Part shown: piece by piece, positions 74 through 30,565 of the stretch
How the letters are laid out: each line of letters starts with the position of its first letter
How positions within the stretch are numbered: position 1 is the stretch's first letter
Assembly: GCF_003966335.1 (NCBI RefSeq)
Contig: NZ_CP034549.1
Coordinates: 1,020,001-1,052,000, forward strand
DNA: 32,000 nt
Reading direction: 5' to 3'
From: Nonlabens ponticola
GTDB taxonomy: Bacteria > Bacteroidota > Bacteroidia > Flavobacteriales > Flavobacteriaceae
Made by a program: the position numbers and the translations under genes
Notes under the pieces: generated by a model
The model's input: the letters and a program-made list of their open reading frames with translations, nothing else
Database searches by the model: none
Told to the model about the DNA's origin: nothing

Positions 74-1387
74 TTGATGTTTAAAAGAAACAACATGTCA
101 ACTTCAAATTTTGCAACCCAGTCATTACACACAGGTCATGACTTCAAAAACAACGGTGGTACAAGAGCAGTGCCGCTCTATCAATCCACTAGCTATGTGT
201 TCAACAACAGCGATCACGCAGCAAATCTGTTCTCGCTCGCCGAGCCTGGTTTTATCTACACCAGGATCAATAACCCAACGGTAGATGTGCTGGAACAGCG
301 ACTCACCGCTCTAGAAGGTGGTCTTGCAGCCGTGGCAACCGCCTCGGGAACCAGCGCCATTTCAACAACGCTACTTACCTTATTGCGTGCTGGCGATCAT
401 ATCGTCGCTAGTAATTCGCTCTATGGCGGTACTTATAACTTGCTTTCGGTGACACTTCCTAGATTGGGTATCACGACCACATTTGTCAATCCTAATGATG
501 ATGACGCTTTCGCGAAAGCGGTACAAGAAAACACCAGAGCCATATTTGTAGAGTCTCTAGGTAATCCCAAACTTGATGTGTTAGATCTCAAAAAAATCAG
601 TGTACAAGCCAAAGATGCCAAAGTGCCATTGATCGTAGATAATACAGTCGCCACACCTTACTTACTCAATCCTATTGAGCACGGCGCAAACATCGTCATT
701 CATTCATTGACCAAGTATATCAACGGTAACGGTACAGCTCTAGGCGGCATCATCATCGACGCAGGAACCTTTGATTGGACAAACGGCAAATTCCCAGAAT
801 TTACAGAGCCATCGCCAGGATACCATGGTCTGGTTTACAGCGAAGCGCTGGAAGCTGCTGCCTTTATTGCCAAAGTGCGAATAGAAGGCCTGCGTGATCT
901 AGGTGGTGCGATATCACCGTTCAATGCATGGCAAATCATTCAAGGTTTAGAAACCCTACAATTGCGTATTGAAAAGCACAGTCAAAGCGCACTGGAATTA
1001 GCTAAATGGCTACAAACTCAAGAACAAGTAGAATGGGTCAACTATCCAGGATTAGAGTCCAGCGATTACTACGATCTGGCAAAAAAATATCTGCCTAAAG
1101 GACAAAGTGGTATCGTTACTTTTGGAGTAAAAGGTGGTTATGAAAGTGCCAAAAAAGTAGTCGACAGCGCTCAGGTATTCTCTTTGCTAGCCAACATAGG
1201 CGATACAAAATCCTTGATCATTCACCCAGCAAGCACCACGCACCAGCAGCTTAAGGACGAAGATCAGCTTAGTACTGGTGTGACAAAGGATTTGATCAGA
1301 CTATCCGTTGGTCTTGAAGATATAGAGGATTTGAAACAAGATCTCGTCAACGCATTTGCAGCCATCAAATCTGGAGTTACCGCCTAG
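74..1387 (+). CDS. metY: O-acetylhomoserine sulfhydrylase (PLP-dependent Cys/Met metabolism family)
   Basis: 437-aa ORF with family hallmarks: NPT..LEQRL..LEGG, SLTKYINGNG carrying the PLP lysine, and C-terminal RLSVGLED. It is the first gene of a metY-metX-hom cluster. The true start may be ATG 95 (MSTSNF...). Confidence 0.85.
   Translation: MMFKRNNMSTSNFATQSLHTGHDFKNNGGTRAVPLYQSTSYVFNNSDHAANLFSLAEPGFIYTRINNPTVDVLEQRLTALEGGLAAVATASGTSAISTTLLTLLRAGDHIVASNSLYGGTYNLLSVTLPRLGITTTFVNPNDDDAFAKAVQENTRAIFVESLGNPKLDVLDLKKISVQAKDAKVPLIVDNTVATPYLLNPIEHGANIVIHSLTKYINGNGTALGGIIIDAGTFDWTNGKFPEFTEPSPGYHGLVYSEALEAAAFIAKVRIEGLRDLGGAISPFNAWQIIQGLETLQLRIEKHSQSALELAKWLQTQEQVEWVNYPGLESSDYYDLAKKYLPKGQSGIVTFGVKGGYESAKKVVDSAQVFSLLANIGDTKSLIIHPASTTHQQLKDEDQLSTGVTKDLIRLSVGLEDIEDLKQDLVNAFAAIKSGVTA
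505..520. repeat. 16-bp perfect palindrome CGCTTTCGCGAAAGCG (iterated palindrome family), inside metY
   Basis: Read directly from the sequence. Translated in frame as A-F-A-K-A (codons from 506). Confidence 0.95.
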
Positions 1388-2368
1388 ATGTCAGTAAATC
1401 TTGAGACATATCAAATTCCAGATTTTGAATCGATCTCTGGTATCAAACAGGACGTCCATCTTACCTATAGAATATACGGGTGCGCGCTACACAGCGCACC
1501 CATAATTCTGGTCAATCACGCGCTCACAGGTAATTCTGATCTGGAAAGCTGGTGGTTTGAGATGGTAGGACCTGACAAACCGCTAGATACCAATCGCTTC
1601 ACTTTACTAACAATTGATTTGCCTGGTAATGGTCATGATCGCGATGTAGATCATCTGGTTTACAATTACAAAGACTGGAACTTAGGCGATGTGGCGAGAG
1701 CATTTGTACGATTGTTTGAGCATCTTGGGATTCGGCAATTTCACTTAGGAATAGGCGGCAGCATAGGTGGCGCATTGCTTTGGGAACTGCTAGCTATCGA
1801 GCCTAGTTTATTTAAGACTATCGTGCCTATCGCGGCAGACTGGAAAGCTACCGACTGGTTGATCGCCTGTTGCTATGTGCAAGAGCAAATCTTGTCAACA
1901 TCCAGCGCACCACTTGAGACGGCAAGAAAGCATGCCATGACTTTTTATAGATCGCCGCAAAGTTTAAAGCACAAATTTCAGCGAGCTCAAGTCAATGATC
2001 AGTTTAAAGTGAATGCCTGGTTAGATCATCACGGTAAAATTTTGAAATCCAGATTTACACTACCAGCATACAGGCTGGTCAATCATTTGTTGCAAAGCAC
2101 GGATGCGGCGAGGTCACATAAAAGTATTGATGAAGTTGTAGGCAATACAGAAACCCAAGTTCATCTAGTTGCGATTGACAGTGATGGATTCTTTGTTCCT
2201 CAAGAAGATAGAGATACGCATCAACGATTTAGAGATACAGGAAAAGTGCATTATTATGAAATCAAAAGTTTGCACGGTCATGATGCATTCTTGATTGAGC
2301 ACGATCAGGTCTCGCACATTATTAATCAAATTCTAGCTACCGTGGTAGTAGAAAATCCAGTCGTATAA
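1388..2368 (+). CDS. metX: homoserine O-acetyltransferase (alpha/beta hydrolase, MetX family)
   Basis: 326-aa ORF starting right after the metY stop (TAGATG). It has the VNHALTGNS motif and the GGSIGG nucleophile elbow typical of MetX, and sits in a methionine context. Confidence 0.75.
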   Translation: MSVNLETYQIPDFESISGIKQDVHLTYRIYGCALHSAPIILVNHALTGNSDLESWWFEMVGPDKPLDTNRFTLLTIDLPGNGHDRDVDHLVYNYKDWNLGDVARAFVRLFEHLGIRQFHLGIGGSIGGALLWELLAIEPSLFKTIVPIAADWKATDWLIACCYVQEQILSTSSAPLETARKHAMTFYRSPQSLKHKFQRAQVNDQFKVNAWLDHHGKILKSRFTLPAYRLVNHLLQSTDAARSHKSIDEVVGNTETQVHLVAIDSDGFFVPQEDRDTHQRFRDTGKVHYYEIKSLHGHDAFLIEHDQVSHIINQILATVVVENPVV

Positions 2369-2386
2369 AATGACGACGTTATAATT

Positions 2387-3478: not shown

Positions 3479-3523
3479 CTGTCAATAAAATCCCATGTTT
3501 GATAATAATGGTAGCTTTGCCAC

Positions 3524-3934: not shown

Positions 3935-4000
3935 TCCAGCTATACTCAACAAAAACGTTTGCGTATTATTATCCTAGTAACCTTATAGGGTTTAAGGATT

Positions 4001-4300
4001 ATGTCGTTAATTTGCACTTCATTTGAGTATATGATTCTGGATCAGTTTTTATACACCAGCGCCAAAACCCAAAAAACCACCACGGCAACTACCTCACAAG
4101 ATTCAACGGTGCGCAGCATTGTAAAATCGGTTAGTTGGCGCGTTATCGGTACGATTGACACGGTTTTGATTTCCTATTTTTTGACCGGCGAGATCAACAC
4201 GGCGTTTGCTATTGGTGGTGTAGAATTGATTACAAAAATGGTTCTCTACGTTGCCCACGAGCGCGTGTGGAACTGCATAAAATTTGGTAGACGACCATGA
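4001..4300 (+). CDS. DUF2061-like small membrane protein
   Basis: KSVSWRVIGTIDT...TG......E...K...Y..HERVW pattern recalled for DUF2061. Its stop overlaps the next start (ATGA). The start codon is uncertain (4001 or 4031). Confidence 0.5.
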   Translation: MSLICTSFEYMILDQFLYTSAKTQKTTTATTSQDSTVRSIVKSVSWRVIGTIDTVLISYFLTGEINTAFAIGGVELITKMVLYVAHERVWNCIKFGRRP

Positions 4301-4917
4301 TAGATCATAGCAATTATCAGGATTATAATTCCGCTTTCGCGAAAGCGGAACCCAGCAAAATTATCGATACAGTATTAGAGCAGGCGCACAAGCCTATAGT
4401 GACGACTAACTTCAGGCCGTATGAAGTAGCCATATTGCACGCTGTGGCAAGTGTGGATCCTAACGTACCAGTTGTGTGGTGCGATACAGGTTACAACACG
4501 CCGCAAACATACAGACACGCCATCGAGGTAATCGAGAAATTAGGTCTAGACGTGTCCACGTATGTGCCGCAACAAACGGTGTCTTATAGAAATGAAACGC
4601 TAGGAATACCTACGGTGGACGATTCCAATCATGCGGAATTTACTAGACAAGTCAAACTAGAACCTTTTCAGCGAGCGATGGCGCATTTTCAGCCAGATGT
4701 GTGGTTCACAAATTTGCGCGCAGGCCAGACCAATTTTAGAGATTCTATTGATGTCCTCTCATACAGTAAGGATGGCGTACTCAAGGTGAGCCCGTTTTAT
4801 CATTATGATGATCAACAACTTGACGAATATCTAGCAAAACACGATCTACCCAATGAGTTTAAATATTTTGACCCAACCAAAGTCGAGTCAAACAGAGAAT
4901 GCGGTCTTCATGCCTAA
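4297..4917 (+). CDS. cysH: phosphoadenosine phosphosulfate / adenylylsulfate reductase family protein
   Basis: 206 aa with the family C-terminal ECGLH motif. It sits directly upstream of cysDN. Only two Cys residues are present, so there is no CC...CxxC Fe-S signature. Confidence 0.7.
   Translation: MIDHSNYQDYNSAFAKAEPSKIIDTVLEQAHKPIVTTNFRPYEVAILHAVASVDPNVPVVWCDTGYNTPQTYRHAIEVIEKLGLDVSTYVPQQTVSYRNETLGIPTVDDSNHAEFTRQVKLEPFQRAMAHFQPDVWFTNLRAGQTNFRDSIDVLSYSKDGVLKVSPFYHYDDQQLDEYLAKHDLPNEFKYFDPTKVESNRECGLHA
4329..4350. repeat. 22-bp perfect palindrome TTCCGCTTTCGCGAAAGCGGAA, inside cysH-like gene
   Basis: Read directly. Translated as S-A-F-A-K-A-E. Confidence 0.95.
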
Positions 4918-5809: not shown

Positions 5810-7054
5810 ATGAATGTATTGAAGATTGCTACCGCAGGTAGCGTGGATGATGGAAAAAGCACCTTGATAGGCAGATTGTTGTACGACACGCAATCGCTAC
5901 CTACGGACAAACTTGAGGCGATAAAAAAGAGCAGCGAGAAGAAAGGATACGATTACCTAGACCTATCGCTAGCTACCGACGGCCTTGTTGCAGAGCGTGA
6001 ACAAGGCATCACGATTGACGTGGCGCACATCTATTTCTCGACACCAGACCGCAGCTACATCATCGCAGACTCGCCAGGCCATGTAGAATACACGCGAAAT
6101 ATGATCACTGGCGCCAGCACCAGCAAGGCCAGTATTATCTTGATCGATGCTAGAAAAGGCGTTGTCGAGCAGACCTTTAGGCATTTTTATATCAACCATT
6201 TATTGCAGACCAGTCACTTGATCATAGCGGTCAATAAAATGGATCTAGTAGATTATGACGAGTCCGCTTTCGCGAAAGCAGTACAACAATTCCAATCTCT
6301 GCTAGACAAACACCCGTCGGAAAAGCGAAAGGTGCATTTTGTGCCAGTAAGCGCACTCAAGGGCGATAACGTCGTGAGCAAATCTGCCGAAATGCCATGG
6401 TATCAAGGAAGCCCAATCTTAGAAAACCTATCCAAAATAGATACGATTGCGGAAGACTCGCAGAGTTTCTTACAAGTCCAGAATGTCATACGTCCCAAGA
6501 CCGAAGAATATCATGACTACCGTGGTTTTGCAGGACGCATCAGAGGCGCACATTTATCAATCGGCGACCAGATTACCGTGCTGCCGTCCATGAAGACAAG
6601 CACCGTTGACGGTATTTATTTTAATGGCGCTAAGTATGACGAGGCGCCAGTGGGCAGTTCAGTTAGTGTGACTTTGAAAGATGAGGTCAACGTCGATCGC
6701 GGCGATATTTTGATGACGCAACCACCAGCCGATCTTGAACTAACCAAAAACATTCAAGCCACCATCTGCTGGATGGACAGCACGCCATTGCGACCGCGCA
6801 CTAAATTTCACTTACAATACGGTACTCAACGCATGACTTGCCGTGTAGAGCAAATCACCTCAAAAAAATCAGCAGATTTCCACCAGGATATCATCGATGT
6901 CGATCAACTCGAACTCAATGACATCGCCACAATTCAGCTCAAACTGAGCAAACCTATTCCAGCGATCACATACGACCAATCAAAAGAACTCGGCCGCTTC
7001 ATTCTTATTGATCCACAAAGCAGAAATACTGCTGCCGTTGGGTTCATTGAATAA
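5810..7054 (+). CDS. cysN: sulfate adenylyltransferase subunit 1 (GTPase), without a fused APS kinase domain
   Basis: G1 GSVDDGKST, G3 DSPGH and G4 NKMD motifs. At 414 aa there is no C-terminal CysC domain. It starts 1 nt after the cysD stop. Confidence 0.9.
   Translation: MNVLKIATAGSVDDGKSTLIGRLLYDTQSLPTDKLEAIKKSSEKKGYDYLDLSLATDGLVAEREQGITIDVAHIYFSTPDRSYIIADSPGHVEYTRNMITGASTSKASIILIDARKGVVEQTFRHFYINHLLQTSHLIIAVNKMDLVDYDESAFAKAVQQFQSLLDKHPSEKRKVHFVPVSALKGDNVVSKSAEMPWYQGSPILENLSKIDTIAEDSQSFLQVQNVIRPKTEEYHDYRGFAGRIRGAHLSIGDQITVLPSMKTSTVDGIYFNGAKYDEAPVGSSVSVTLKDEVNVDRGDILMTQPPADLELTKNIQATICWMDSTPLRPRTKFHLQYGTQRMTCRVEQITSKKSADFHQDIIDVDQLELNDIATIQLKLSKPIPAITYDQSKELGRFILIDPQSRNTAAVGFIE
6266..6279. 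repeat. 14-bp perfect palindrome GCTTTCGCGAAAGC, inside cysN
   Basis: Read directly. Translated as A-F-A-K-A. Confidence 0.95.
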
Positions 7055-7062
7055 TGTGGTGT

Positions 7063-9057: not shown

Positions 9058-9162
9058 GAGTTATAAAGAAAGGTTCAGGGATTAGACCCGTTGAGACCTT
9101 GGCAACCCTGCAACTGCAGAAGGTGCCTCATTCTACCACGCTTTTGTGGACAGATAACGAGC
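9058..9162 (+). promoter_or_regulatory. SAM-I (S-box) riboswitch aptamer
   Basis: The sequence gTTATaAAGAaAGG..AGGGA..GaCCCgtTGAgaCC..GGCAACC..ctgcaactgcagAAGGTGCctcAtTC..CCACgcttttGTGGacAGATAACgag matches my recalled SAM-I consensus. P1 is GTTAT (9060-9064) paired with ATAAC (9154-9158). The P4 hairpin is CCAC/GTGG. It lies upstream of metH-metF and is followed by a U-rich tract (9178-9190). Confidence 0.8.
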
Positions 9163-9193: not shown

Positions 9194-9209
9194 CGCTTTC
9201 GCGAAAGCG
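9194..9209. repeat. 16-bp perfect palindrome CGCTTTCGCGAAAGCG, intergenic (between riboswitch and metH start)
   Basis: Read directly. It follows the U-tract immediately. Confidence 0.95.
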
Positions 9210-9264: not shown

Positions 9265-10320
9265 TTGCAAGTGAGCATTGAAAAACAAACACCAAGATTG
9301 GGAAACACAATATTATATAAGGCATTGCAAGAGCGTATCCTAGTGCTGGATGGCGCTATGGGCACGATGCTACAGCGACACAAATTTACTGAGGCCGACT
9401 TTCGTAGTGAGCGTTTCAAGAATTATCCGTATGATGTAAAAGGAAATAATGATTTATTGTCCATCACTCAGCCGGAAGCCATTGCAGATGTTCATGCGCA
9501 ATATTTTGCGGCAGGTGCTGACATTGTGGAGACCAATACGTTTAGTGCAACCACCATCGCCATGGCAGATTACCACATGGAAGATCTGGTCGATGAGCTG
9601 AACATTCAAAGTGCTCAAATCGCACGCAAAGTCGCTGACGACTTCACGGCTCGCGAGCCGCACAAACCCAGATTTGTCGCCGGCGCGATCGGCCCAACCA
9701 ATAAAACAGCTAGCATGTCGCCAGATGTTAATGATCCAGGCTATCGTGCGATCACTTTTGACGAGTTGCGCGTTGCCTACAAACAGCAAGCTGCTGGATT
9801 GATAAAAGGTGGCGTGGATATTTTGCTGGTAGAGACGGTCTTTGACACGCTCAATGCCAAGGCGGCTCTTTTTGCCATTTCAGAATTGAAAGAAGAACTA
9901 AATCTAGATATTCCGGTTATGGTAAGCGGTACGATCACAGATGCATCGGGAAGAACTCTAAGCGGTCAAACAGCAGAGGCGTTTATGATTTCGATTGAGC
10001 ATATTCCGCTGTTATCTGTTGGTTTCAATTGCGCATTGGGCGCAAAACAACTCACACCTTATTTGGAAACCGTGGCAAGCAAATCGCCATTTGGCATCAG
10101 TGCCTATCCCAATGCAGGATTGCCTAATGCTTTTGGCGAGTACGATGAATCGCCAGAACAAATGGCATCTCAAATACGAGAATACCTCGACAAATCACTG
10201 ATCAACATCATCGGTGGTTGTTGTGGTACGACACCAGATCATATTGCTGCCATCGCTAAAATCGCTGCAGAATACAAGCCGAGACCCATTCCTTCACTTC
10301 AAAAACTAGCGTATGCCTGA
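9265..10320 (+). CDS. metH: methionine synthase, N-terminal homocysteine S-methyltransferase domain (separate ORF)
   Basis: Hcy-binding domain with Zn-ligand motifs GFNCALG and [11 protein letters not shown]. The ORF-track start is TTG 9265; GTG 9271 is an alternative. The stop overlaps the next ORF (ATGCCTGA). Confidence 0.85.
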
Positions 10321-13027
10321 TAAACAAGTGAACGAATTTAGACCACTCAAACTTAGCGGACTCGAACCGCTAGTCATTACTCCCGAAAGTAATTTTGTCA
10401 ATGTAGGCGAGCGTACCAATGTAGCGGGTTCCAAAAAATTCTTGCGTTTAATCAATGAGGATAAATTTGACGAGGCACTGGAAATAGCAAGAGATCAGGT
10501 GGACAATGGTGCGCAGATCATCGACATTAACATGGATGATGGAATGATCAATGGCAAGGCTGCCATGGTCAAATTCCTCAATCTCATAGCAGCAGAACCG
10601 GACATTTCGCGGGTGCCTATCATGATCGACAGTTCCAAATGGGAAATCATCGAGGCTGGATTGCAGGTTGTTCAGGGAAAATGCGTGGTCAATTCCATCA
10701 GCCTTAAGGAAGGCGAGGAAGAATTTGTCAAACACGCCAAAGCTATCAAACGCTACGGCGCCGCCGTGATCGTCATGGCCTTTGATGAAGTAGGTCAAGC
10801 AGACACCTATGAACGCCGCATTGAGATTGCCAAGCGCAGTTACGATATCCTGGTGGATAAGATAAATTTCGCGCCAGAGGACATCATTTTTGACCTGAAC
10901 ATATTTCCAGTGGCAACTGGAATGGAAGAACATAAACTCAACGCACTCGACTTTATCAATGGCACGCGTTGGGTGCGAGAGAACCTGCCGCATGCCAGCG
11001 TAAGTGGTGGCGTGAGCAATGTGAGTTTCAGCTTTCGTGGCAATAACAAAGTGCGTGAGGCCATGCATAGTGCCTTTCTATTTCATGCTATAAAGGCTGG
11101 AATGAACATCGGTATCGTGAACCCAGCACTGCTGGAAGTTTATGACGATATCGATAAGGAACTGCTGGAGTATGTAGAAGATGTCTTGCTCAATCGTCGG
11201 GATGACGCCACTGAACGACTACTCGATTATGCCGAGAGCGTTACTCAAACAGTAAGAACCAGCACGATAGATAACAGTTGGCGTGAAACACCTCTACAGG
11301 ATCGAATCACACGAGCTCTTATTAAAGGTATTGACGCCTACATCATAGAAGATGTCGAGGAAGCCAGACAAGTATCCAGCGCGCCGATCGAGGTCATAGA
11401 AGGTCACTTGATGACAGGTATGAATGTCGTCGGCGACCTGTTTGGTTCTGGAAAAATGTTCCTACCGCAAGTAGTCAAGAGTGCACGCGTTATGAAAAAG
11501 GCGGTAGCCTATCTGTTGCCCTACATTGAAGCAGAGAAAGAAAAGAATTTAAAAGAAAATCCTGATTTTCTTTCCAGCACCAGTTCGCCAAAGGTATTGA
11601 TGGCCACCGTAAAAGGTGACGTGCATGACATCGGGAAAAACATTGTTTCGGTAGTACTTGCATGCAATAATTATGAGATCATTGATCTAGGCGTCATGGT
11701 ACCACCAGAAAAAATTCTGGATGCTGCAATTGAACATCAAGTGGATATCATTGGCCTGAGCGGACTCATCACGCCGTCGCTGGATGAGATGGTTTATATC
11801 GCCAAGGAGATGAAACGACGCAATTTTGAGGTGCCTTTGATGATAGGTGGTGCGACGACTTCGCGAGCGCATACGGCCGTCAAGATTGCACCAGAATATG
11901 ACGGAACCATCGTTCACGTGAATGATGCCAGTCGTGCGGTAACCGTCGCTGGAGAATTGACTGGTGATAAGGGTGATGACTATCACGCTTTCGCGAAAGC
12001 TAAAAAAGAAGAATACACTAAACTGCGCAATGACTTTTTAGGTAGGGCCAAGAAAAAGGATTTCCTAACGATTGAGCAGGCACGAGAAAATAAACTACAA
12101 TTGGATTGGAGCAATTACCAACCTGTGAAGCCGAAGGAACTTGGCGTTCATGAGTTGGAAGCAATTGATTTAAAAGAAGTTGTTCCATACATTGACTGGT
12201 CGCCGTTCTTCCGCAGTTGGGATTTGCATGGTCGTTATCCTGATATTTTGACCGATGCCGTCGTGGGCGAGCAAGCGACAGATCTTTTTGCAGATGCTCA
12301 AGAAATGTTGAAGAAAATCATTGATGAGAATTGGTTAGTGGCAAAAGCACTCTACGGTTTGTTCCCAGCAAATTCCAATGAGCAGGATGACATAGAGGTC
12401 AAGGGAACTGATCAGGATTTTATATTCAGAACCTTGCGCCAACAATCCAAAAAAGCGGTTGGAAAACCTCAAATCGCACTATCTGACTTCATCGCACCAC
12501 AGGAATCCGGCGTTCAAGATTATATAGGAGTATTTTGTGTGAGCACAGGTTTTGGTGTTCCAGAACGAGCTGCGCAATTTGAGAAGGATCACGACGATTA
12601 CAATTCCATCATGCTCAAAGCTCTTGCCGACCGACTCGCCGAAGCGCTAGCCGAATATCTGCACCTAAGAATACGTAAGGAATTCTGGGGTTATGCCAGC
12701 GACGAGCAGTTGGAAAACAATGACTTGATCAAAGAAGCCTATAAAGGAATACGACCTGCTCCAGGTTATCCAGCCTGTCCAGATCACTTGGAAAAAGAGA
12801 CGATTTGGGAATTGTTGCAAGTAGAAAAACGCATAGGCGTAAAGCTTACGGAAAGCCTTGCCATGTGGCCGGCAGCCAGTGTTTCCGGCTACTACATTGC
12901 ACATCCAGAATCACGCTACTTTGGGCTGGGCAAGATTAAGGAAGATCAGGTCAAGGACTATGCAGACCGTAAAGGAATCTCTTTTGCGAAAGCGGAAAAA
13001 TGGCTCAACCCAAACATCGCTGATTAA
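10313..13027 (+). CDS. metH: methionine synthase, pterin-binding + cobalamin-binding + AdoMet-activation domains
   Basis: 904 aa with the B12-binding DVHDIGKN (DxHxxG) and [10 protein letters not shown] motifs. The activation domain carries [12 protein letters not shown]. Confidence 0.9.
11987..12000. repeat. 14-bp perfect palindrome GCTTTCGCGAAAGC, inside metH
   Basis: Read directly. Translated as A-F-A-K-A. A one-mismatch copy at 12981-12995 (CTTTTGCGAAAGCGG) in the same gene reads S-F-A-K-A-E. Confidence 0.95.
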
Positions 13028-16708: not shown

Positions 16709-17497
16709 TTAGATAAGATCTGTCTTGTATAGTATCAATCCGCTTGATGGTGCTATGTGCGATAGGTGGATTTTATTGCTGCCATCCAGTGTTTTCTCAA
16801 ATTTTTTAAGAGTTAACTTGCCCATTCCCAGATCAAATAGCGCACCCATCATTAGCCGTACCTGGTGGCGTTTGAATCCTTTACCGCTTACGCGAAAGCA
16901 AAAGCTTTTCTCGGGAAAAAAGCTAGCTGTAAAGAGATGGTTCTCTTCGATATAACAGCTGTCAACCACGCTGGTGGTGATGGTTTCCGCTTTAGGTTTG
17001 TAGGTATATGACCAGAAATCTTTCTCTCCTATAAACATTTGGGCGGCAGTTTTCATAAGTTCTATATCCAGCTGTGATTTCATATAAACCATAAGCGACG
17101 CACAAAACGGATGGAACTTCTCGCCATGCGAAAATAGGTAGATGTATTCCTTGAGTTTTGCTGCCTGAATGATGTTGAAATCTGCAGTGGTTTCTTGAAT
17201 TCCTAAGGCTCTTATATCACTGGGTAAGTTGAGATTGAATTCCTGTATGAACTCCTCAAGATCTGCGATAGGCTCGTCATCAAGAAATAATTCAATCGCT
17301 GTTTCATTTACTGACACACGAGCATCGGTACGACCTGCTGCCAGGATTTTGAAATTGGAATGATCAAACACAAATCTCAAGGTGCGCTGCACCATGCGCT
17401 CGACGGTAGGTAGATTTGGCTGCTTTTGCCAACCGTGGAAACGGAAGCCTAGGTATTGTAACTTAATGATGTAGTAGTGTCGCTGGTTGAATGGCAT
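16709..17497 (-). CDS. TruA-family tRNA pseudouridine synthase (divergent)
   Basis: YLGFRFHGWQKQ and AGRTDARVS, which carries the catalytic Asp of the GRTD motif. 262 aa. It contains a one-mismatch palindrome copy at 16886-16899. Confidence 0.7.
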   Translation of the reverse strand: MPFNQRHYYIIKLQYLGFRFHGWQKQPNLPTVERMVQRTLRFVFDHSNFKILAAGRTDARVSVNETAIELFLDDEPIADLEEFIQEFNLNLPSDIRALGIQETTADFNIIQAAKLKEYIYLFSHGEKFHPFCASLMVYMKSQLDIELMKTAAQMFIGEKDFWSYTYKPKAETITTSVVDSCYIEENHLFTASFFPEKSFCFRVSGKGFKRHQVRLMMGALFDLGMGKLTLKKFEKTLDGSNKIHLSHIAPSSGLILYKTDLI

Positions 17498-19330: not shown

Positions 19331-19352
19331 TTACGCTTTCGCGAAAGCGTAA
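19331..19352. repeat. 22-bp perfect palindrome TTACGCTTTCGCGAAAGCGTAA, intergenic
   Basis: Read directly. It lies in the divergent region between the gldA-like gene and the phe leader. Confidence 0.95.
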
Positions 19353-20411: not shown

Positions 20412-21571
20412 TCACACCAGCAGATAAATTAAATGAGGTTAAGGAATACTATTTTGCAACAAAATTGCGCGAGGTAAAGTCCTTAATCAATCAGGGCAAG
20501 CCTATTATCAATGCAGGTATAGGTAGTCCAGATTTGCAACCACCAGCGGCTGTAAATGAAGCGTTGATTGATGCATTAAACGATGAGAGAGCGCATCAAT
20601 ATCAAAGTTATCTGGGATTGCCCGAATTGCGAGAGGCGATGAGCAATTTTTATGCACGTCATTATAACGTCCGGTTAGATCCAGCAAGCGAGGTAATACC
20701 GCTCATGGGTAGTAAAGAAGGTATTCTGCATATTTCCATGTCTTTTCTCAATAAAGGTGATCAGGTGCTGGTTCCCAATCCAGGTTATCCTACCTACTCA
20801 AGTGCTACACGATTGTGTGAGGCAACGCCTATTTATTATAATTTGATAGATGAGAACGACTGGATGCCAGATCTTGAATCGTTGCAATCACAAGATTTGA
20901 GCAAGGTAAAAATCATGTGGGTCAACTATCCGCACATGCCTACCGGTGTGGCTGGTAGCTCTCAGGTTTTTGCACAGTTAATAGTCTTTTGCCAGAAGCA
21001 TGACATATTATTAGTCAATGACAATCCCTATAGCTTTTTGGGATACGATAAAAAAATCAGCATCCATCAGTTTACAAATTCAAGAAACGCACAGGTGCTT
21101 GAATTGAACTCGGTAAGTAAGACGTTTAACATGGCAGGCTGGCGTGTAGGTATGTTGACTGGTAACGCCACACTCATTAAAGAAGTCCTTAAAGTAAAAA
21201 CCAATATGGACAGTGGCATGTTTTATCCAGTTCAAAAAGGTGCGATCGCTGCTCTCAAGACTGAAGATGATTGGTACGCGACCCAATTAGAAATTTATAG
21301 AGAACGTAGATCAAAAATGGTTGAAGTTGCCAAAGCACTAGGTTGCGAACCCATAAAACAAGAAGGTGGATTGTTTGTTTTTTGCAAATTGCCTGTTGGT
21401 ATCGACGACAAGCAGTTTGTCGATGATTTACTTCATGAGCATGATATTTTCATTGCGCCAGGAAGCATTTTTGGCAGTAATGGAGCTCGCTACGTTCGTT
21501 TTTCCCTTTGCGTGAAAATTGAAGATATAGAAATCATGCTCGACAGAGTTTCAAAAAAAGTTCAAGCATGA
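20408..21571 (+). CDS. class I/II PLP aminotransferase (likely aromatic/prephenate aminotransferase)
   Basis: SVSKTFNMAGWRVG PLP-lysine motif and NPGYPTY. It overlaps pheA (ATGA) and tyrA. Confidence 0.8.
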   Translation: MITPADKLNEVKEYYFATKLREVKSLINQGKPIINAGIGSPDLQPPAAVNEALIDALNDERAHQYQSYLGLPELREAMSNFYARHYNVRLDPASEVIPLMGSKEGILHISMSFLNKGDQVLVPNPGYPTYSSATRLCEATPIYYNLIDENDWMPDLESLQSQDLSKVKIMWVNYPHMPTGVAGSSQVFAQLIVFCQKHDILLVNDNPYSFLGYDKKISIHQFTNSRNAQVLELNSVSKTFNMAGWRVGMLTGNATLIKEVLKVKTNMDSGMFYPVQKGAIAALKTEDDWYATQLEIYRERRSKMVEVAKALGCEPIKQEGGLFVFCKLPVGIDDKQFVDDLLHEHDIFIAPGSIFGSNGARYVRFSLCVKIEDIEIMLDRVSKKVQA

Positions 21572-22428
21572 AAAATGTATATCTGATAGGAGTAGGATTG
21601 ATAGGTGGCTCAATGTTGCTGGATTTGAGAGCTCATTATCCAGAAGCTGTCTTTTATGGAATCGATCATAATGATGATCATCTGGATCAAGCGATATCCT
21701 GCGGCGTTGTTGATCACAAAGCAACGATGGAAGATCTTATAAATGCAGATCTAGTCATCGTCTCAATTCCCGTAGATGCTACGGTCAATTTGCTTTCACA
21801 AGTTCTCGATAATATAAATGATGACAGTCTAGTCATGGATGTAGGATCGACTAAAGAGGCCATTTGCGCATCAGTAGCAAATCATAAAAACAGGCGACAA
21901 TACCTCGCTACACATCCTATTGCAGGAACTGAATTTTCTGGACCACAAGCAGCGATAAAAGATCTTTATAAAGGCAAGACCATGATCGTTTGCGAGGTGG
22001 AGAAAACCGCTTTTGCACAACAGGAATTAGGCAAAGGATTATTGGAAAAGCTGGGTATGCGAGTTAGATATATGACACCAGCAGCGCACGACAAGCACAT
22101 AGCATATGTGTCCCATTTATCGCATATTTCCAGTTTTATGCTGGGTAAAACCGTGATACAGGAAGAAGCTAACGAGCGCGATATTTTTGATCTCGCCGGT
22201 AGTGGATTTGAGAGCACTGTGCGATTGGCCAAGAGCTCGCCTGCCATGTGGACGCCTATCTTTGCACAAAATAAAGAGCACGTTATAGCTGGACTGGATG
22301 GTTATATTGATAATCTAGTTAGCTTTCGCGAAAGCTTAAAAAACGACAATCACACAGCCATTTATAACGAGATGGCGCAAACCAATAGAATTAAAACCAT
22401 ACTGAAAGGAATACAAAATGGAAAATAA
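21568..22428 (+). CDS. tyrA: prephenate dehydrogenase
   Basis: IGVGLIGGS Rossmann motif and HPIAGTEFSG catalytic region. Operon context supports the call. Confidence 0.85.
   Translation: MKNVYLIGVGLIGGSMLLDLRAHYPEAVFYGIDHNDDHLDQAISCGVVDHKATMEDLINADLVIVSIPVDATVNLLSQVLDNINDDSLVMDVGSTKEAICASVANHKNRRQYLATHPIAGTEFSGPQAAIKDLYKGKTMIVCEVEKTAFAQQELGKGLLEKLGMRVRYMTPAAHDKHIAYVSHLSHISSFMLGKTVIQEEANERDIFDLAGSGFESTVRLAKSSPAMWTPIFAQNKEHVIAGLDGYIDNLVSFRESLKNDNHTAIYNEMAQTNRIKTILKGIQNGK
22321..22336. repeat. 16-bp perfect palindrome AGCTTTCGCGAAAGCT, inside tyrA
   Basis: Read directly. Translated as S-F-R-E-S (second frame). Confidence 0.95.
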
Positions 22429-23500: not shown

Positions 23501-23553
23501 TTCCATTAGTTTTGTAATATGAGAAATTTCATTTGGTGTAGTAAAAACGATCT

Positions 23554-24558
23554 ATGACTGGAACCGTCTATCGATCCACAGGAAGCTGGTATGAGGTAAA
23601 AGGCACTGATGGTGCTTTTTACTCTTGTAGGATAAAGGGTAAATTCCGTTTGCAGGGTATCAAGAGTACTAATCCTGTTGCGGTAGGTGATCAGGTAGAT
23701 TTTGAGATTGAGAAAAAGGGTGATGAAGAGATAGGAATCATCAATGAGATTCACGAGCGTGATAATTACATCGTGCGCAAATCAGTCAACCTATCCAAGC
23801 AAACGCATATAATCGCTGCAAATGTCGATCAGGTTTTTTTACTGGTTACGCTTAATAATCCACCGACGTTTACCTCATTTATTGATCGGTTTCTGGTGAC
23901 TGCCGAGGCCTATCACATTCCTGCTGTCCTTGTTTTCAATAAAGTAGATACCTATGACGATAGTCAAGATCAGGTAGCTATTGATCCAGAAACTGGTGAA
24001 GAAATGCTCACCATGACCGAGCTTGATGAGGTGCGTTACCTCATGAGTTTATATAAATCCATAGGATATGACTGTATTGCGATAAGCGCGGCAACGGGTA
24101 AAAATGTGGATCAAATTAAAGAGAAGATGACTGGTAAAACCAGCATGTTTTCTGGTCACAGTGGTGCAGGAAAAAGCACGTTGGCAAATGCCGTCCAGCC
24201 AGGTCTGGAGCTCAAAACAAAAGAAATATCAGACCAGCACAAGCAAGGGCAGCATACCACCACATTTGCAGAGATGTTTGATCTTGATTTTGACGCCCGA
24301 TTGATCGATACGCCTGGTATCAAAGGATTTGGTGTAGTCGACATGGAAAGGGAAGAGATAGGCGATTATTTTCCAGAGATCTTTGAACTCAAATCTCAAT
24401 GTAAATTCCATAATTGCCTGCACATTGAGGAGCCTAAATGCGCCATCAAGCAAGCGGTTGAAGAAGGCGCCATTGCCGCTTCACGTTATGAAAGCTATGT
24501 TCAAATAGTCCAAGGTGATGAGGAAAATTATAGACAGGACAAACACGTGCCTAAATGA
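23554..24558 (+). CDS. rsgA: ribosome small-subunit-dependent GTPase A
   Basis: Circularly permuted GTPase order (NKVD before GHSGAGKSTL and DTPG) with a C-terminal zinc knuckle CKFHNCLHIEEPKC. Confidence 0.85.
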   Translation: MTGTVYRSTGSWYEVKGTDGAFYSCRIKGKFRLQGIKSTNPVAVGDQVDFEIEKKGDEEIGIINEIHERDNYIVRKSVNLSKQTHIIAANVDQVFLLVTLNNPPTFTSFIDRFLVTAEAYHIPAVLVFNKVDTYDDSQDQVAIDPETGEEMLTMTELDEVRYLMSLYKSIGYDCIAISAATGKNVDQIKEKMTGKTSMFSGHSGAGKSTLANAVQPGLELKTKEISDQHKQGQHTTTFAEMFDLDFDARLIDTPGIKGFGVVDMEREEIGDYFPEIFELKSQCKFHNCLHIEEPKCAIKQAVEEGAIAASRYESYVQIVQGDEENYRQDKHVPK

Positions 24559-25037
24559 GAGCGATCGTTCAAAGAGTGAAAAATGCCAGCGTCAGTATAG
24601 ACGGTCAGATGAAAGGTCAAATTGATAAAGGCTTACTCATTTACCTGGGAATAACTCATGATGACACCCAAGATGATGCCGATTATCTAGTACGTAAAAT
24701 TCTGGGAATGCGAATTTTCAATGATGAAAACGCCGTTATGAATTTATCAATTGAGGACACTGATGGTGAGATTTTACTGATTTCTCAGTTCACACTTTAT
24801 GCACAAACGAGAAAAGGCAATCGACCTAGTTATGTCGCTGCTGCACGCCCAGAAGTCGCATTACCGTTATATAATTATGTTATTAGTCAGCTTTCGCGAA
24901 ACCTGCCTGCCCAAGTGCGGTCACGACAGGCAGGGCGTAACAAACCAATAGCTACAGGTACGTTTGGTGCAGATATGCAGGTAGCATCCACTAATGACGG
25001 GCCTGTGACAATAATTGTTGATTCTGTTTCTAAATAG
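24555..25037 (+). CDS. dtd: D-aminoacyl-tRNA deacylase carrying an in-frame repeat-derived insertion
   Basis: MRAIVQRV, SQFTL, GNRPS, FGADMQV and NDGPVT motifs. It is 160 aa versus about 145-150 aa for typical Dtd. The extra segment coincides with the 59-bp element. Confidence 0.85.
   Translation: MRAIVQRVKNASVSIDGQMKGQIDKGLLIYLGITHDDTQDDADYLVRKILGMRIFNDENAVMNLSIEDTDGEILLISQFTLYAQTRKGNRPSYVAAARPEVALPLYNYVISQLSRNLPAQVRSRQAGRNKPIATGTFGADMQVASTNDGPVTIIVDSVSK
24890..24948 (+). repeat. 59-bp composite palindrome-hairpin element, copy B
   Basis: GCTTTCGCGAAA CCTGCCTG CCCAAGTGCGGTCACGA CAGGCAGG GCGTAACAAACCAA. Identical to the reverse complement of 14035-14093. Translated as LSRNLPAQVRSRQAGRNKP within dtd. 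Confidence 0.9.
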
Positions 25038-25106
25038 TTTTTGTGATATTGTTAAGACCCTAAGATAATTTTGTCTTAAAATAGATCCGTAGTATTTTAC
25101 GCACTT

Positions 25107-27014: not shown

Positions 27015-27021
27015 ATTATTT

Positions 27022-28998: not shown

Positions 28999-29321
28999 GT
29001 ATCAAGAAATCTCAAGAACAAGTGGACGCCTGGATTAAAAACCATGGCATTCGCTATTTTAACGAGCTTACCAATATGGCTCAGCTAACCGAAGAGGTTG
29101 GTGAAGTTGCACGTATCATTGCCAGACGATATGGCGAGCAGTCTGAGAAGGAAAGCGATAAAATAAAAGACCTAGGTGAGGAACTGGCAGATGTTATGTT
29201 TGTCGTCCTATGTCTAGCCAACCAGACAGGAATTGACCTGCAAGAAGCTTTTGATAAAAAACTAGAGATCAAAACGCAGCGTGACCATGATCGTCATCTT
29301 AATAACGAGAAGCTCAAATAA
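28995..29321 (+). CDS. MazG-like nucleotide pyrophosphohydrolase (small, single domain)
   Basis: EEVGEVARII ... EELADVMFVVLCLAN..GIDL pattern (EExxE...ExxD) in a 108-aa protein. ATGA overlap with the upstream gene. Confidence 0.7.
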   Translation: MSIKKSQEQVDAWIKNHGIRYFNELTNMAQLTEEVGEVARIIARRYGEQSEKESDKIKDLGEELADVMFVVLCLANQTGIDLQEAFDKKLEIKTQRDHDRHLNNEKLK

Positions 29322-29323
29322 AC

Positions 29324-30565
29324 ATGAGATTACAGCTACAGGCGAGCTCATCGCAACAAGAGCAAACTCCAATAATCAATATTACAGGATCAAAAAGTGA
29401 GAGCAACCGCCTATTGATCTTGCAGCAATTGTTTCCTAACCTGCAGATTAAGAACCTATCCACTAGTGATGATACGCAGCATTTACAGGAAGCCCTTGAA
29501 TCAACAAACGAGATTCTAGACATAGGTCATGCAGGCACTGCCATGCGGTTTATCACTGCACTCATGGCAAGTAGCGACCTACAGAGAACAGTAACAGGTA
29601 GCGACCGCATGAAGCAGCGACCTATTGGGATTTTGGTCGATGCATTGAGATACTTGGGCGCGCAAATTGATTATGTAGAGAATGAAGGTTTCCCGCCATT
29701 GAAAATTAAGGGTAATCAACTTCATGGTGGTGAAGTCACCATGGATGCTGGTGTTTCTAGCCAGTTCTTAAGCGCCTTGCTGCTGGTAGCGCCACGGTTT
29801 GAGAATGGCTTGACCTTAAGGCTTTCAGGCAAATTGACTTCACGCCCCTATCTAGAAATGACGACAGGATTGATGCAACTTTTAGGTCTTGATGTAACGT
29901 TTGAAGGCCAAGTCATCAAGGTCAAACATCAATCACATATCACCGATCGGGAAATTGTTGTAGAATCAGACTGGAGTAGCGCTGGTTACTGGTATAGTTG
30001 GGTGGCGATGCAGCCAGCTGGCTACAGTGTGCAGCTCAATTCTTATAAGGACAGCAGTTTACAGGGCGATCGTGCACTGGTTGAGATATATGAGAAATTG
30101 GGTGTGCAAACCACCTTTAATTTGACAGGAATCGTGCTCACGTGCATGACCGATTTTGAACCGCCGCACTATCTGGAATTTGATCTCACGTCACAACCTG
30201 ATCAAGCGCAAACAATCTTTGCTACTTGTTTGGGGCTTGGTATCAATTTGAAAATGAAAGGTTTGCATACTCTTAGAATCAAAGAAACAGACCGTATAAA
30301 GGCAATGGATGTTGTTGGGTCACGCTTTCGCGAAAGCAAAATTCTAACAACCACCGATACCATAGAAATAACATTCTCTCCAGATTCTAGCATTACACAA
30401 GAGTTCATCGTGGACACCTACCAAGATCACCGTATGGCACTAGCCTTTGCACCACTATGCTGCAAGACGACCGTGATAATTAACGATGCAGATGTGGTTA
30501 CTAAAAGCTATGGCGAGTATTATAAGGATCTGGCTGCCGTAAAGGTCGATATAACAGAAATTTAA
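29324..30565 (+). CDS. aroA: 3-phosphoshikimate 1-carboxyvinyltransferase (EPSP synthase)
   Basis: GSKSESNRLLIL, GHAGTAMRF, RPIG and KETDR motifs. 413 aa. Confidence 0.85.
   Translation: MRLQLQASSSQQEQTPIINITGSKSESNRLLILQQLFPNLQIKNLSTSDDTQHLQEALESTNEILDIGHAGTAMRFITALMASSDLQRTVTGSDRMKQRPIGILVDALRYLGAQIDYVENEGFPPLKIKGNQLHGGEVTMDAGVSSQFLSALLLVAPRFENGLTLRLSGKLTSRPYLEMTTGLMQLLGLDVTFEGQVIKVKHQSHITDREIVVESDWSSAGYWYSWVAMQPAGYSVQLNSYKDSSLQGDRALVEIYEKLGVQTTFNLTGIVLTCMTDFEPPHYLEFDLTSQPDQAQTIFATCLGLGINLKMKGLHTLRIKETDRIKAMDVVGSRFRESKILTTTDTIEITFSPDSSITQEFIVDTYQDHRMALAFAPLCCKTTVIINDADVVTKSYGEYYKDLAAVKVDITEI
30324..30337. repeat. 14-bp perfect palindrome GCTTTCGCGAAAGC, inside aroA
   Basis: Read directly. 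Translated as R-F-R-E-S-K (second frame). Confidence 0.95.

Follow-up and report, generated by a model that had tools for sequence, protein, structure and literature searches.

An apparently undescribed genus-wide palindromic DNA word in Nonlabens, comparable to cyanobacterial HIP1 and DNA uptake sequences

Results and Discussion

The palindrome GCTTTCGCGAAAGC occurs about once every 3 kb in Nonlabens DNA and is, it appears, a hitherto undescribed parallel to cyanobacterial HIP1 and to the DNA uptake sequences. As judged from alignments, point substitutions create the copies in situ where change is cheap, i.e. in spacers and at variable protein positions, and a constraint at the level of the DNA word keeps them at orthologous sites throughout the genus, with adjacent synonymous sites randomised. 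The motif is tentatively interpreted as a genus-specific recognition site of the HIP1/USS type for a symmetric protein, perhaps best seen as a self-DNA tag in uptake or recombination.

Abundance and lineage distribution

In the 32-kb N. ponticola window (the whole stretch of DNA analysed), the 10-mer core TTTCGCGAAA had 11 exact matches against 0.08 expected (dinucleotide shuffles: mean 0.08, maximum 2), all of them starting where the sequence-only reading had placed them. The 14-mer had eight exact matches and five with one or two mismatches (expectation 0.11). Eight perfect palindromes of 14–22 bp were reproduced in every extent and coordinate. Nine of the 11 copies lie within ORFs, as had been claimed, and the other two are intergenic; the host genes were borne out by Pfam or source names: MetY-like PLP enzyme, CysH-like PAPS reductase, CysN, MetH, PagL-like hydrolase, DUF2911 protein, TyrA, Dtd and AroA.

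Seven further Nonlabens species, and about 120 contigs from marine metagenomes, had the word at a density of one per 2.5–3.8 kb; it was about 170 times rarer across 1.4 Mb of other Flavobacteriaceae genera. Per ~23 kb, the 10-mer was found 6–9 times in each of the seven other Nonlabens species and once in Leeuwenhoekiella, and 78 of 80 loci from other Flavobacteriaceae lacked it. Matches to the 14-mer with at most one mismatch numbered 58 in 160 kb of Nonlabens sequence, whereas 1.43 Mb from other genera had 3. The metagenome contigs, each recruited by one motif copy, contained the 10-mer 242 times in 839 kb. The lineage-specific excess is about 100-fold or more; about 1000 copies per genome is an extrapolation, not a count, from one per 2.5–3.8 kb to the 2.87-Mb chromosome. 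Prophage-type contigs had copies within portal, protease and HNH genes, whereas a lytic Nonlabens phage had none.

In the searchable literature the 14-mer was found nowhere, mentions of the 10-mer never concerned Nonlabens or Bacteroidota, and no such palindrome was tied to Nonlabens or Flavobacteria, in agreement with the earlier impression that this is not a described element in Bacteroidota.

The motif core includes TCGCGA and CGCG, which are typical methylase targets. The word could accordingly be a by-product or target of a methyltransferase-repair pair acting on TCGCGA or the CGCG core, with biased short-patch repair or methyl-directed processing creating and restoring it, but this is improbable. 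HIP1 does overlap two orphan methylase sites, and its effect on transformation is methylation-dependent (PMC4390886; bioRxiv 10.1101/2024.09.10.611283). Vsr-like DUF559 domains occur commonly in Bacteroidota, and four Nonlabens species even have one inserted in MetH; N. ponticola and YIK11, however, are without this insert and yet have the full motif density. Moreover, a methylase site of 4–6 bp is too short to specify a word of 14–22 bp with its flanks, the frequency of TCGCGA apart from the motif was not unusual, and repair bias predicts neither the even spacing nor the five-fold intergenic excess described below. A biased repair or methylation origin was once proposed for HIP1, where conservation analysis already spoke against replenishment by biased repair (PMC5861425).

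Origin and conservation of individual copies

Codon alignments with outgroup genera, which were available for the MetY, CysH, CysN, MetH (two sites) and TyrA copies but not for the AroA site, showed no indel at any of these copies. The motif codons were ungapped, supporting the proposal that most copies reflect in-situ substitution rather than insertion. The further claim that there is no length change held at these sites and failed at 14082 and 24892, where the motifs carry a 33-nt insertion and length therefore changes. Coordinates below are without strand, except for these two interrupted copies.

The 16-bp perfect palindrome CGCTTTCGCGAAAGCG at 505–520 is translated as D-A-F-A-K-A-V in the MetY-like gene (74–1387) and shows no indel versus Leeuwenhoekiella; it is orthologous in N. 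marinus, N. xiamenensis and one metagenome relative, and decayed in N. antarcticus. Three further copies are read in the frame AFAKA. The 22-bp perfect palindrome TTCCGCTTTCGCGAAAGCGGAA at 4329–4350 in the CysH-like gene (4297–4917) is common to YIK11 and N. agnitus and is a substitution versus Maribacter, and the 14-bp palindrome at 6266–6279 in cysN (5810–7054) faces VFNDI or RYNEI in ungapped outgroup columns. The 14-bp palindrome at 11987–12000 lies in a variable linker of metH (10313–13027), where its nucleotides are identical in all eight Nonlabens species and the outgroups read QYKAG, KYKSD or AYKKS, with the motif codons ungapped. In tyrA (21568–22428), the 16-bp palindrome AGCTTTCGCGAAAGCT at 22321–22336 (frame S-F-R-E-S) is common to five species, with QFKNL or EFREL, ungapped, in outgroups. 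The 14-bp palindrome at 30324–30337 in aroA (29324–30565; frame R-F-R-E-S) has an ortholog in L237, a metagenome contig of 72% nucleotide identity.

Both intergenic copies are also retained. The 16-bp palindrome at 9194–9209 lies 34 nt 3' of a SAM riboswitch aptamer (9058–9160) and 56 nt 5' of a homocysteine S-methyltransferase gene, and its position and sequence are identical in six of eight Nonlabens species, only those six being alignable. The 22-bp palindrome TTACGCTTTCGCGAAAGCGTAA at 19331–19352, between divergent genes for an ABC ATPase (minus strand) and prephenate dehydratase (plus strand), is kept in YIK11, N. agnitus, N. marinus, N. antarcticus and metagenome contig L250.

The copy GTTTTCGCGAAAGC at 16536–16549, with one mismatch, is translated A-F-A-K-T in the DUF2911 gene (minus strand); it is common to YIK11, N. 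agnitus and N. marinus, while N. antarcticus and N. xiamenensis have it in decayed form. Two near copies had been reported as differing by a single base. This is correct for GCTTACGCGAAAGC at 16886–16899 in a pseudouridine synthase gene (minus strand, frame F-R-V-S), whose mismatch is common to five species, indicating a stable near-match rather than recent decay. The other, TCTTTTGCGAAAGC at 12980–12993 close to the MetH C-terminus, has two mismatches to the 14-mer. The same site in N. marinus reads ACTTTCGCGAAAGC, with the 10-mer core and right arm exact and one mismatch to the 14-mer, whereas other species are more distant from the motif and outgroups only FEKA-like; it is a site in transit, moving toward the motif.

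Coding copies occupy variable protein positions: outgroup residues agree in only about 7 of 50 cases in the motif columns, while whole MetH proteins are 65–76% identical. Four-fold synonymous identity between N. ponticola and the other species is only 0.33–0.48, and the identity of orthologous copies despite such saturated synonymous sites shows that the DNA word itself is constrained. The motif relies on minority codons (GCG, 20% of Ala; TTC, 29% of Phe codons), and three window sites were retained in an uncultured relative that is 72–80% identical in nucleotides.

The copies at 14082 and 24892 are full motifs split by an identical 33-nt hairpin insertion at a fixed internal position (GC^TTTCGCGAAAGC). 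The first (14035–14093, plus strand), in the pagL-like gene, has the insertion at 14049–14081 between ..ACGC and TTTCGCGAAAGC; the second (24890–24948, minus strand), in dtd (24555–25037), has it at 24902–24934, where it adds 11 in-frame codons. The two intervals are identical at 59 of 59 nt on opposite strands, including 14 nt of flank, which implies that the insertion was targeted or else that motif copies underwent ectopic conversion. The PagL site is retained in all eight species, uninterrupted in the other seven; the N. ponticola copy has, besides the insertion, G for C in the left arm.

A shared insert at the same internal position, with shared flank, would fit a site-specific nuclease, recombinase or transposase cutting symmetrically 5 nt from the dyad, with gene conversion or templated repair homogenising and spreading the word. 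Repeated palindromes such as REPs are preferred IS targets, which would also fit. Nevertheless, such an enzyme is an unlikely source of the motif, slightly more so than methylation and repair. The interruption occurs only twice, both times in N. ponticola, and no further example was found in about 1 Mb of related sequence or in IMG/VR; no transposase or nuclease gene was found nearby, and the remaining copies are plain substitutions. The 33-nt insert may simply be a small element using the motif as a landing site, in which case it is uninformative on motif function.

Form of the motif

The 14-bp core is usually extended to 16–22 bp as (T)(T)(A/T)CGCTTTCGCGAAAGCG(T/A)(A)(A). A symmetric but weaker preference extends for about 19 bp in either direction (about 50 bp in total), the 5' side being T/G-rich and C-poor and the 3' side A/C-rich and G-poor. 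Pairing of the arms is absent beyond ±4 bp of the 14-mer, and an extended symmetric preference without such pairing argues for recognition of duplex DNA and not of a long hairpin. The two-fold symmetry in turn suggests a dimeric protein that reads the duplex.

As single-stranded DNA the 22-mer can form a 9-bp hairpin (−7 to −8 kcal/mol), which, together with the numerous intergenic copies and the single dominant frame, could speak for a MITE/REP-like element or for an RNA or peptide signal (hairpin terminator, mRNA stabiliser or selected AFAKA peptide). These readings are largely refuted by the ungapped alignments, frame use and the arm-pairing limit, and are very improbable. Terminal repeats and target duplications are absent and arm complementarity ends about 4 bp past the 14-mer, in line with the initial view of a likeness to HIP1 or uptake sequences rather than to a MITE. 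The T-rich stretch before and A-rich stretch after the hairpin are the reverse of an intrinsic terminator, divergent gene pairs exceed convergent ones around intergenic copies (33 versus 14), and the neighbouring SAM riboswitch was the sole Rfam match. Within the motif even synonymous positions are fixed, and a peptide signal would not need them to be.

Placement and spacing

Coding copies use all three frames and both gene orientations, with frame counts of 81, 36 and 37; the favoured frame encodes Ala-Phe-Ala-Lys-Ala. About 45% of copies in the metagenome contigs lie within the ~13% of sequence that is non-coding, although the 18-mer used to seed this sample may itself favour spacers; a tally of positions against gene calls at genome loci placed 13 of 40 copies in intergenic DNA. 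The intergenic share is one third to almost half of the copies, an excess of about five-fold.

Pairs closer than 1 kb are almost absent. In the window the minimum gap was 1933 bp, attained in none of 20000 Monte Carlo trials, and the CV was 0.34 (p = 6e-4). Across independent contigs, the probability of encountering the next copy rose from 0.014 per kb at 0–0.5 kb to 0.36–0.50 per kb at 3–4 kb.

Such strong short-range repulsion and quasi-regular spacing would be expected of binding sites for a chromosome-architecture or segregation protein (nucleoid-associated, Noc/ParB-like or condensin-loading), with one site per few kb selected for even coating, looping or tethering. This explanation is possible, though rather unlikely. 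The perfect two-fold symmetry over 16–22 bp, the ~50-bp extended preference, the long-term conservation of positions and the presence of copies in resident prophages but not in the lytic phage all favour it. The TTTC...GAAA outline of the motif is also that of parS (TGTTTCACGTGAAACA) and the Noc site (ATTTCCCGGGAAAT). For HIP1, conservation and periodicity led to the same interpretation (PMC5861425). However, the half-sites of the motif are set 2 bp closer together than those of parS or the Noc site, no candidate protein emerged, and the exactness of the word is left unexplained, as protein site sets are mostly degenerate. Known architectural sets (parS, NBS, matS, SBS) comprise tens of sites per genome, whereas the motif density would imply about 1000 per 2.9-Mb chromosome.

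Proposed role

According to the self-DNA tag interpretation, fragments with the motif would be preferentially taken up and/or recombined. Such a bias would act as molecular drive and, combined with selection against harmful placements, could produce the density, even spacing, frame bias and intergenic excess. USS copies are biased in reading frame, enrich the encoded peptides and are under-represented where DNA is constrained or new (PMC2817400), and drive by uptake bias is expected to yield relatively even spacing (PMC7811141). HIP1 sites are conserved through selection (PMC5861425), natural transformation is increased by HIP1 (bioRxiv 10.1101/2024.09.10.611283), and HIP1 has been put forward as an uptake sequence (bioRxiv 10.64898/2026.06.24.733823). 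Natural competence, with a preference for self DNA, has been found in one member of the Flavobacteriales, Riemerella columbina; on the other hand, Flavobacterium johnsoniae was non-competent in the same study (PMC7965970).

Other points also weigh against an uptake tag. A perfect palindrome of 16–22 bp with a ~50-bp footprint is more reminiscent of an operator or an architectural site, and conservation at saturated divergence and regular spacing are equally expected for the sites of a chromosome-organising protein. Pure core-genome uptake drive, in its simplest form, would not predict the copies in prophage structural genes. To our knowledge, no experiment or gene ties Nonlabens to natural competence.

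Comparison with known systems

REP/BIME elements (RAYT transposases) are likewise short, GC-rich, densely repeated palindromes and possible landing sites for small insertions such as the 33-nt insert. They differ in being extragenic, imperfect, 20–40 nt long, often paired and spread by copying, whereas more than half of the Nonlabens copies are intragenic and the coding copies alignable with outgroups are substitutions without length change. ParB/Noc-type sets (parS, NBS) share a 14–16 bp perfect palindrome with the TTTC...GAAA outline that is chromosome-wide and (for the motif, presumably) dimer-read. They differ in number of sites (tens, versus ~1000 extrapolated) and by 2 bp in half-site spacing, and no ParB/Noc-type protein is tied to the motif.

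The resemblance to HIP1 and USS noted in the sequence-only reading is upheld by the lineage excess, orthologous conservation, frame bias and even spacing. Like the motif, USS (Pasteurellaceae) and DUS (Neisseriaceae) are clade-specific words found about once per 1–3 kb and accumulated by point mutation, with genic frame bias, peptide enrichment, scarcity in constrained coding sequence and fairly even spacing (PMC2817400, PMC7811141). Motif flank variants between Nonlabens lineages resemble DUS dialects. The extended consensus of USS/DUS has A/T-rich flanks, as does the motif. USS/DUS are, however, asymmetric 9–12-mers defined by preferential uptake, whereas the Nonlabens motif is a perfect palindrome with a putative role in uptake.

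HIP1 (GCGATCGC) has a different sequence, is 8 bp long versus 14–22 bp plus flanks, has cognate methylases (none is known for the motif), spans most of the cyanobacterial phylum rather than a single genus in Bacteroidota, is denser and shows periods of 10–90 kb rather than short-range regularity (~2–4 kb). HIP1, of unsettled function, shares with the Nonlabens motif a palindromic form, a large lineage-wide excess within and between genes, an origin by substitution, conservation of orthologous sites above the neutral expectation and a non-random distribution along the chromosome (PMC5861425, PMC4390886).

Copies of the word in the window

All eleven occurrences of the 10-mer TTTCGCGAAA reported by the sequence-only reading were recovered at the same starts, against a mean of 0.08 and a maximum of 2 in shuffles that preserved dinucleotide composition. 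The 14-bp palindrome GCTTTCGCGAAAGC, within which the 10-mer lies, was present in eight exact copies and in five more with one or two mismatches, compared with an expected 0.11. The palindromes were found to extend over 16, 22, 14, 16, 14, 22, 16 and 14 bp, in agreement with the earlier description.

Nine of the eleven 10-mers are located inside ORFs, as had been stated. Pfam or source names identify the hosts of the coding copies as a MetY-like PLP enzyme, CysH, CysN, MetH, a PagL-like hydrolase, a DUF2911 protein, TyrA, Dtd and AroA. Ten proteins of the window are identical to N. ponticola proteins; the chromosome of N. ponticola (Flavobacteriaceae) comprises 2,872,100 bp.

A SAM-I riboswitch aptamer (Rfam RF00162, 65 bits) was detected at 9058-9160 on the plus strand, upstream of the homocysteine S-methyltransferase and metH genes, and a conserved copy of the motif lies 34 nt downstream of it, at the position expected for the expression platform. 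This riboswitch was the only RNA family matched in the Rfam scan of the window. A short tandem duplication (TGAATTCAGAATT..., 15202-15250), made up of two 24-nt units that are 83% identical, was also observed where the pagL-like gene meets the DUF2807 gene.

Origin of the copies

Most copies had been proposed to arise by substitution in situ, with no change in length. When host genes were aligned by codon with orthologues from other genera, the motif codons of MetY, CysH, CysN, MetH (both sites) and TyrA aligned without a gap, and for these genes the proposal stands; the two copies in pagL and dtd, which carry a 33-nt insertion, do differ in length. In the outgroup codon alignments the motif columns rank among the least conserved positions of otherwise well-conserved host proteins. 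In MetH they read AFAKA (Ala-Phe-Ala-Lys-Ala, the peptide of the commonest coding frame) in Nonlabens, as opposed to QYKAG, KYKSD or AYKKS in the outgroups. At the motif site near the C-terminus of MetH, an F-E-K-A-like peptide is found in the outgroups. The 14-mer differs by two bases from the N. ponticola sequence and by one from that of N. marinus, which has the exact 10-mer core and right arm. Here a site can be seen on its way to the motif. A methylation- or repair-driven origin of the word is considered less likely.

The copies at 14082 and 24892 look imperfect, yet both proved to be the full motif, split into TTGGTTTGTTACGC and TTTCGCGAAAGC by one and the same 33-nt GC-rich hairpin, CCTGCCTGTCGTGACCGCACTTGGGCAGGCAGG, which sits exactly between GC and TTTCGCGAAAGC. 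The insert occupies 14049-14081 on the plus strand in pagL (identical block 14035-14093) and 24902-24934 on the minus strand in dtd (identical block 24890-24948), the two blocks being in opposite orientations and identical over 59 nt. Eleven in-frame codons are added by it to Dtd, and likewise to the PagL leader. The PagL motif site is intact in the other seven Nonlabens species, and the insert was not found in the relatives' loci compared or in IMG/VR; among the sequences compared, it occurs only in N. ponticola.

The insert may be a tiny element aimed at a fixed position in the word, or may result from ectopic conversion between motif copies. Targeted insertion and copy-to-copy conversion alike point to an activity on the word at a distance of 5 nt from its centre, and the fixed position hints that an enzyme cleaves there, 5 nt from the centre on both sides. 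As an account of the word as a whole, homogenisation by a nuclease or recombinase is considered less likely.

Constraint on the DNA word

Across MetH, MetF and their neighbours, the four-fold degenerate sites of N. ponticola were 33-48% identical to those of the other species, which is near saturation. Despite this, the MetH copy was nucleotide-identical in all eight Nonlabens species, the PagL motif site was retained in eight of eight, and the copy following the SAM riboswitch was identical in each of the six species that could be aligned. Four or five species shared most of the other sites in the window, and in a few cases a site had clearly been lost or gained through point changes.

The motif also forces the use of minority codons, GCG accounting for 20% of Ala codons and TTC for 29% of Phe codons. 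A signal at the peptide level and a purely neutral explanation are both ruled out by these observations. The DNA word itself is under constraint.

Anatomy beyond the core

In the symmetrised half-site profile, 89% of half-sites have C at -1; position -2 is A or T, positions -3 and -4 are T, and a T/G-rich, C-depleted preference reaches out to about -19 and is mirrored on the other side. The flanks are T-rich 5' of the word and A-rich 3' of it, the reverse of an intrinsic terminator. Within single copies, complementarity between the arms exceeded that expected from composition only at +-1, +-2 and +-4, indicating that the true palindrome is about 22 bp and that the outer flanks represent a compositional preference and form no stem.

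A long hairpin or cruciform was ruled out, as position-by-position complementarity is absent beyond +-4 bp. GCGAAAGC was considered as a stable mini-hairpin, but its predicted fold showed no stability. For the 22-mer, folding of the single strand of DNA was predicted at -7 to -8 kcal/mol. Arm complementarity ends 4 bp past the core, and gains and losses between species are point changes; the element is not a MITE, and the earlier reading had likewise found it closer to HIP1 or uptake sequences than to a MITE. A mobile-element or RNA reading is considered less likely.

At +-2 the two arms covary in their use of A or T. YIK11, N. agnitus and N. marinus have the form TTCGC...GCGAA, and N. spongiae has TACGC...GCGTA; such differences between species may be lineage 'dialects'.

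Placement and spacing of the copies

Some 250-260 exact 14-mers, drawn from genome loci and from metagenome loci, were classified by placement, the metagenome part being seeded by the 18-mer WCGCTTTCGCGAAAGCGW. About 45% of these lie outside ORFs, compared with about 13% of the sequence that is non-coding; in the genome loci alone the proportion, by gene calls, was about one third, so that 55-67% of copies are inside genes. All three reading frames are used, and GCT-TTC-GCG-AAA-GCN (AFAKA) holds 81 coding copies, about twice as many as each of the others (36 and 37). The gene pairs flanking intergenic copies are more often divergent (33) than convergent (14).

The gaps between copies in the window range from 1.9 to 5.4 kb, with a CV of 0.34. 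When 11 points were placed at random in 32 kb, none of 20,000 trials gave a minimum gap as large, and 0.06% gave a CV as low. The corresponding p values for the loci of N. dokdonensis, N. spongiae and N. xiamenensis were 0.001-0.04.

In independent metagenome contigs, with censoring at contig ends allowed for, the rate of meeting the next copy was 0.014 per kb within 0-0.5 kb of a copy, 0.12 per kb at 0.5-1 kb, about 0.18 per kb at 1-2 kb, about 0.25 per kb at 2-3 kb, and 0.36-0.50 per kb at 3-4 kb. Under a Poisson process the rate would stay at about 0.3 per kb at every distance. Copies show short-range mutual repulsion.

Taxonomic range

The MetH region, which is syntenic, was compared in seven other Nonlabens species over 10 kb either side. 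Each had 6-9 copies of the 10-mer per ~23 kb, nearly all with the full 14-16 bp word. Among the matches listed for other genera of Flavobacteriaceae, the 10-mer was absent from 78 of 80 MetH loci (1.43 Mb) and the exact 14-mer occurred once; Leeuwenhoekiella, the nearest other genus listed, had one 10-mer and no 14-mer. With one mismatch or fewer allowed, 58 copies of the 14-mer were present in 160 kb of Nonlabens relatives versus 3 in the 1.43 Mb of the 80 listed loci, a density about 170-fold higher in Nonlabens. None of these 80 MetH loci had an iterated palindrome of its own.

A MAG labelled as an uncultured Aquimarina sp. (L130) was the only one of the 80 listed non-Nonlabens loci with two 10-mers, at 12956 and 22257, one of them with the full 14-mer. 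These may be due to chance, or may mark another lineage in which the word occurs at a low level.

Metagenome contigs found by the 18-mer comprised at least 120 stretches (839 kb), and the matches listed held 242 copies of the 10-mer. Contigs overlapping the window shared 72-80% nucleotide identity with Nonlabens and retained the MetY and AroA motif sites as well as one intergenic site. Across Nonlabens and these metagenome relatives the density was one copy per 2.5-3.8 kb. Its presence throughout the other Nonlabens species and the metagenome contigs indicates that the word is not specific to the window; by these comparisons it appears to be a genome-wide, genus-wide property. A regulator site specific to methionine, cysteine or aromatic genes was ruled out, since copies are also found in DnaE, MutL, phage genes and at least 120 unrelated contigs.

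Phages and the MetH endonuclease domain

The lytic Nonlabens phage P12024S (35.7 kb) had no copy of the word, even with two mismatches allowed. In contrast, several IMG/VR contigs carried two or three full copies per ~12 kb, roughly one per 4 kb. The two contigs examined, L053 (IMGVR_UViG_2617271332_000001; copies at 4212, 7853 and 10957) and L089 (copies at 193, 6707 and 11187), are of prophage type and hold true structural modules of a phage (portal, head protease, major head, HNH), with full copies in the head protease and HNH endonuclease ORFs and the adjoining structural region at near host density. The word is present in chromosome-resident phage DNA (two contigs) but absent from a passing lytic phage (one), and it could be used to assign viral contigs such as these to Nonlabens-like hosts.

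In four Nonlabens species and some metagenome relatives, MetH contains an in-frame insertion of about 130 aa, a DUF559 domain of the Vsr-like endonuclease type (PF04480/PF18741), in the linker preceding the B12-binding domains. It lies at ~11250-11650 in the N. agnitus locus (L200) and likewise in three further loci (L201, L202 and L203), the site corresponding to ~11560 in the window, after MetH residue 416. N. ponticola, YIK11, N. spongiae and N. xiamenensis have MetH without it. Most homologues are free-standing DUF559 proteins of 122 aa from Bacteroidota; in a few fragments the domain is joined to MetRS or GcpE domains, a hint of an endonuclease domain that is mobile and inserts in frame. 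No support was found for a connection of the palindrome with this domain: the insert lies off the motif sites, it is missing from motif-rich species, and the proteins related to it are ordinary DUF559 proteins that stand alone.

Interpretation

The traits of uptake sequences (USS/DUS of Pasteurellaceae and Neisseriaceae) and of HIP1 (cyanobacterial Highly Iterated Palindrome 1) are matched point for point, namely lineage-specific excess, birth by substitution, constraint on the DNA, frame bias at tolerant positions of the proteins, intergenic excess, even spacing and flank 'dialects'. Among Flavobacteriales, natural competence with a preference for self DNA is known from Riemerella columbina (PMC7965970). 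The match of traits favours reading the word as a tag of self DNA: tentatively, at somewhat below even chances, it would be a symmetric protein-recognition site that marks such DNA for uptake and/or recombination. The main rival, a site set for a chromosome-organising protein, accounts equally well for the symmetry, footprint, conservation and spacing, and is judged unlikely though a serious contender.

That Nonlabens has a sequence-specific recognition of self DNA, either as the first uptake or recombination sequence in Bacteroidota or through a new chromosome-organising protein with ~1000 evenly spaced sites of 16-22 bp, is possible but rather doubtful. The first-uptake-sequence reading, if true, would mean that a marine genus of flavobacteria is naturally competent and prefers its own DNA, and as an uptake or recombination tag the word would extend sequence-biased transformation to marine Bacteroidota.

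The genus offers a clean comparative system, with cultivable hosts, ~3-Mb genomes, a sharp taxonomic boundary and a measurable spacing rule. As the word is present in every Nonlabens sampled and nearly absent in neighbouring genera, phyletic profiling could name the protein that reads it, and the 22-bp probe TTACGCTTTCGCGAAAGCGTAA is long enough for direct pull-down. It also imposes the peptides AFAKA, FRES and LSRK on housekeeping proteins, and serves as a genus marker for metagenome binning and for assigning prophages to hosts.

Comparison with known systems

In bacterial genomes, few non-coding signals are as strong as hyper-iterated words of the type of HIP1 and the uptake sequences, and the function of HIP1 has been under dispute for thirty years. 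In the searchable literature the 14-mer was not found, the 10-mer appeared in unrelated contexts only, and neither Nonlabens nor Flavobacteria were tied to an iterated palindrome or uptake sequence, in keeping with the sequence-only reading, which did not recognise it as a described element in Bacteroidota.

REP/RAYT repeats are extragenic, imperfect and spread by insertion, whereas 55-67% of Nonlabens copies are genic and the coding copies checked against outgroups are unchanged in length; identity with these repeats is ruled out on both grounds. The terminal inverted repeats, target-site duplication and presence or absence as indels that define a MITE are likewise not features of the word.

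As with HIP1, a short palindrome is in excess by one to two orders of magnitude (11 versus 0.08, in eight species and at least 120 contigs) and is conserved above neutral within and between ORFs, with identity in up to eight of eight species. HIP1 sites are under selection and non-randomly distributed (PMC5861425), and HIP1 reportedly increases natural transformation, with a role as an uptake sequence put forward for it (bioRxiv 10.1101/2024.09.10.611283; 10.64898/2026.06.24.733823). Because both word (GCGATCGC in cyanobacteria, GCTTTCGCGAAAGC in Flavobacteriaceae) and phylum differ, the Nonlabens element is HIP-like and not HIP1 itself; it would be an independent hyper-iterated word in another phylum, longer and more specific.

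USS/DUS occur about once per 1-3 kb and fairly evenly, compared with one per 2.5-3.8 kb, evenly spaced, in Nonlabens. Their coding copies arise by substitution, in preferred frames and at tolerant positions, with a relative excess outside genes, and the same is found here. USS have been described as biased in frame, as enriching the encoded peptides and as scarce where DNA is constrained or new (PMC2817400), and their even spacing as a product of uptake-bias drive (PMC7811141). By this comparison the Nonlabens word is best placed with the HIP/USS kind, as a longer, perfectly palindromic member that belongs to one genus and follows an unusually clear spacing rule.
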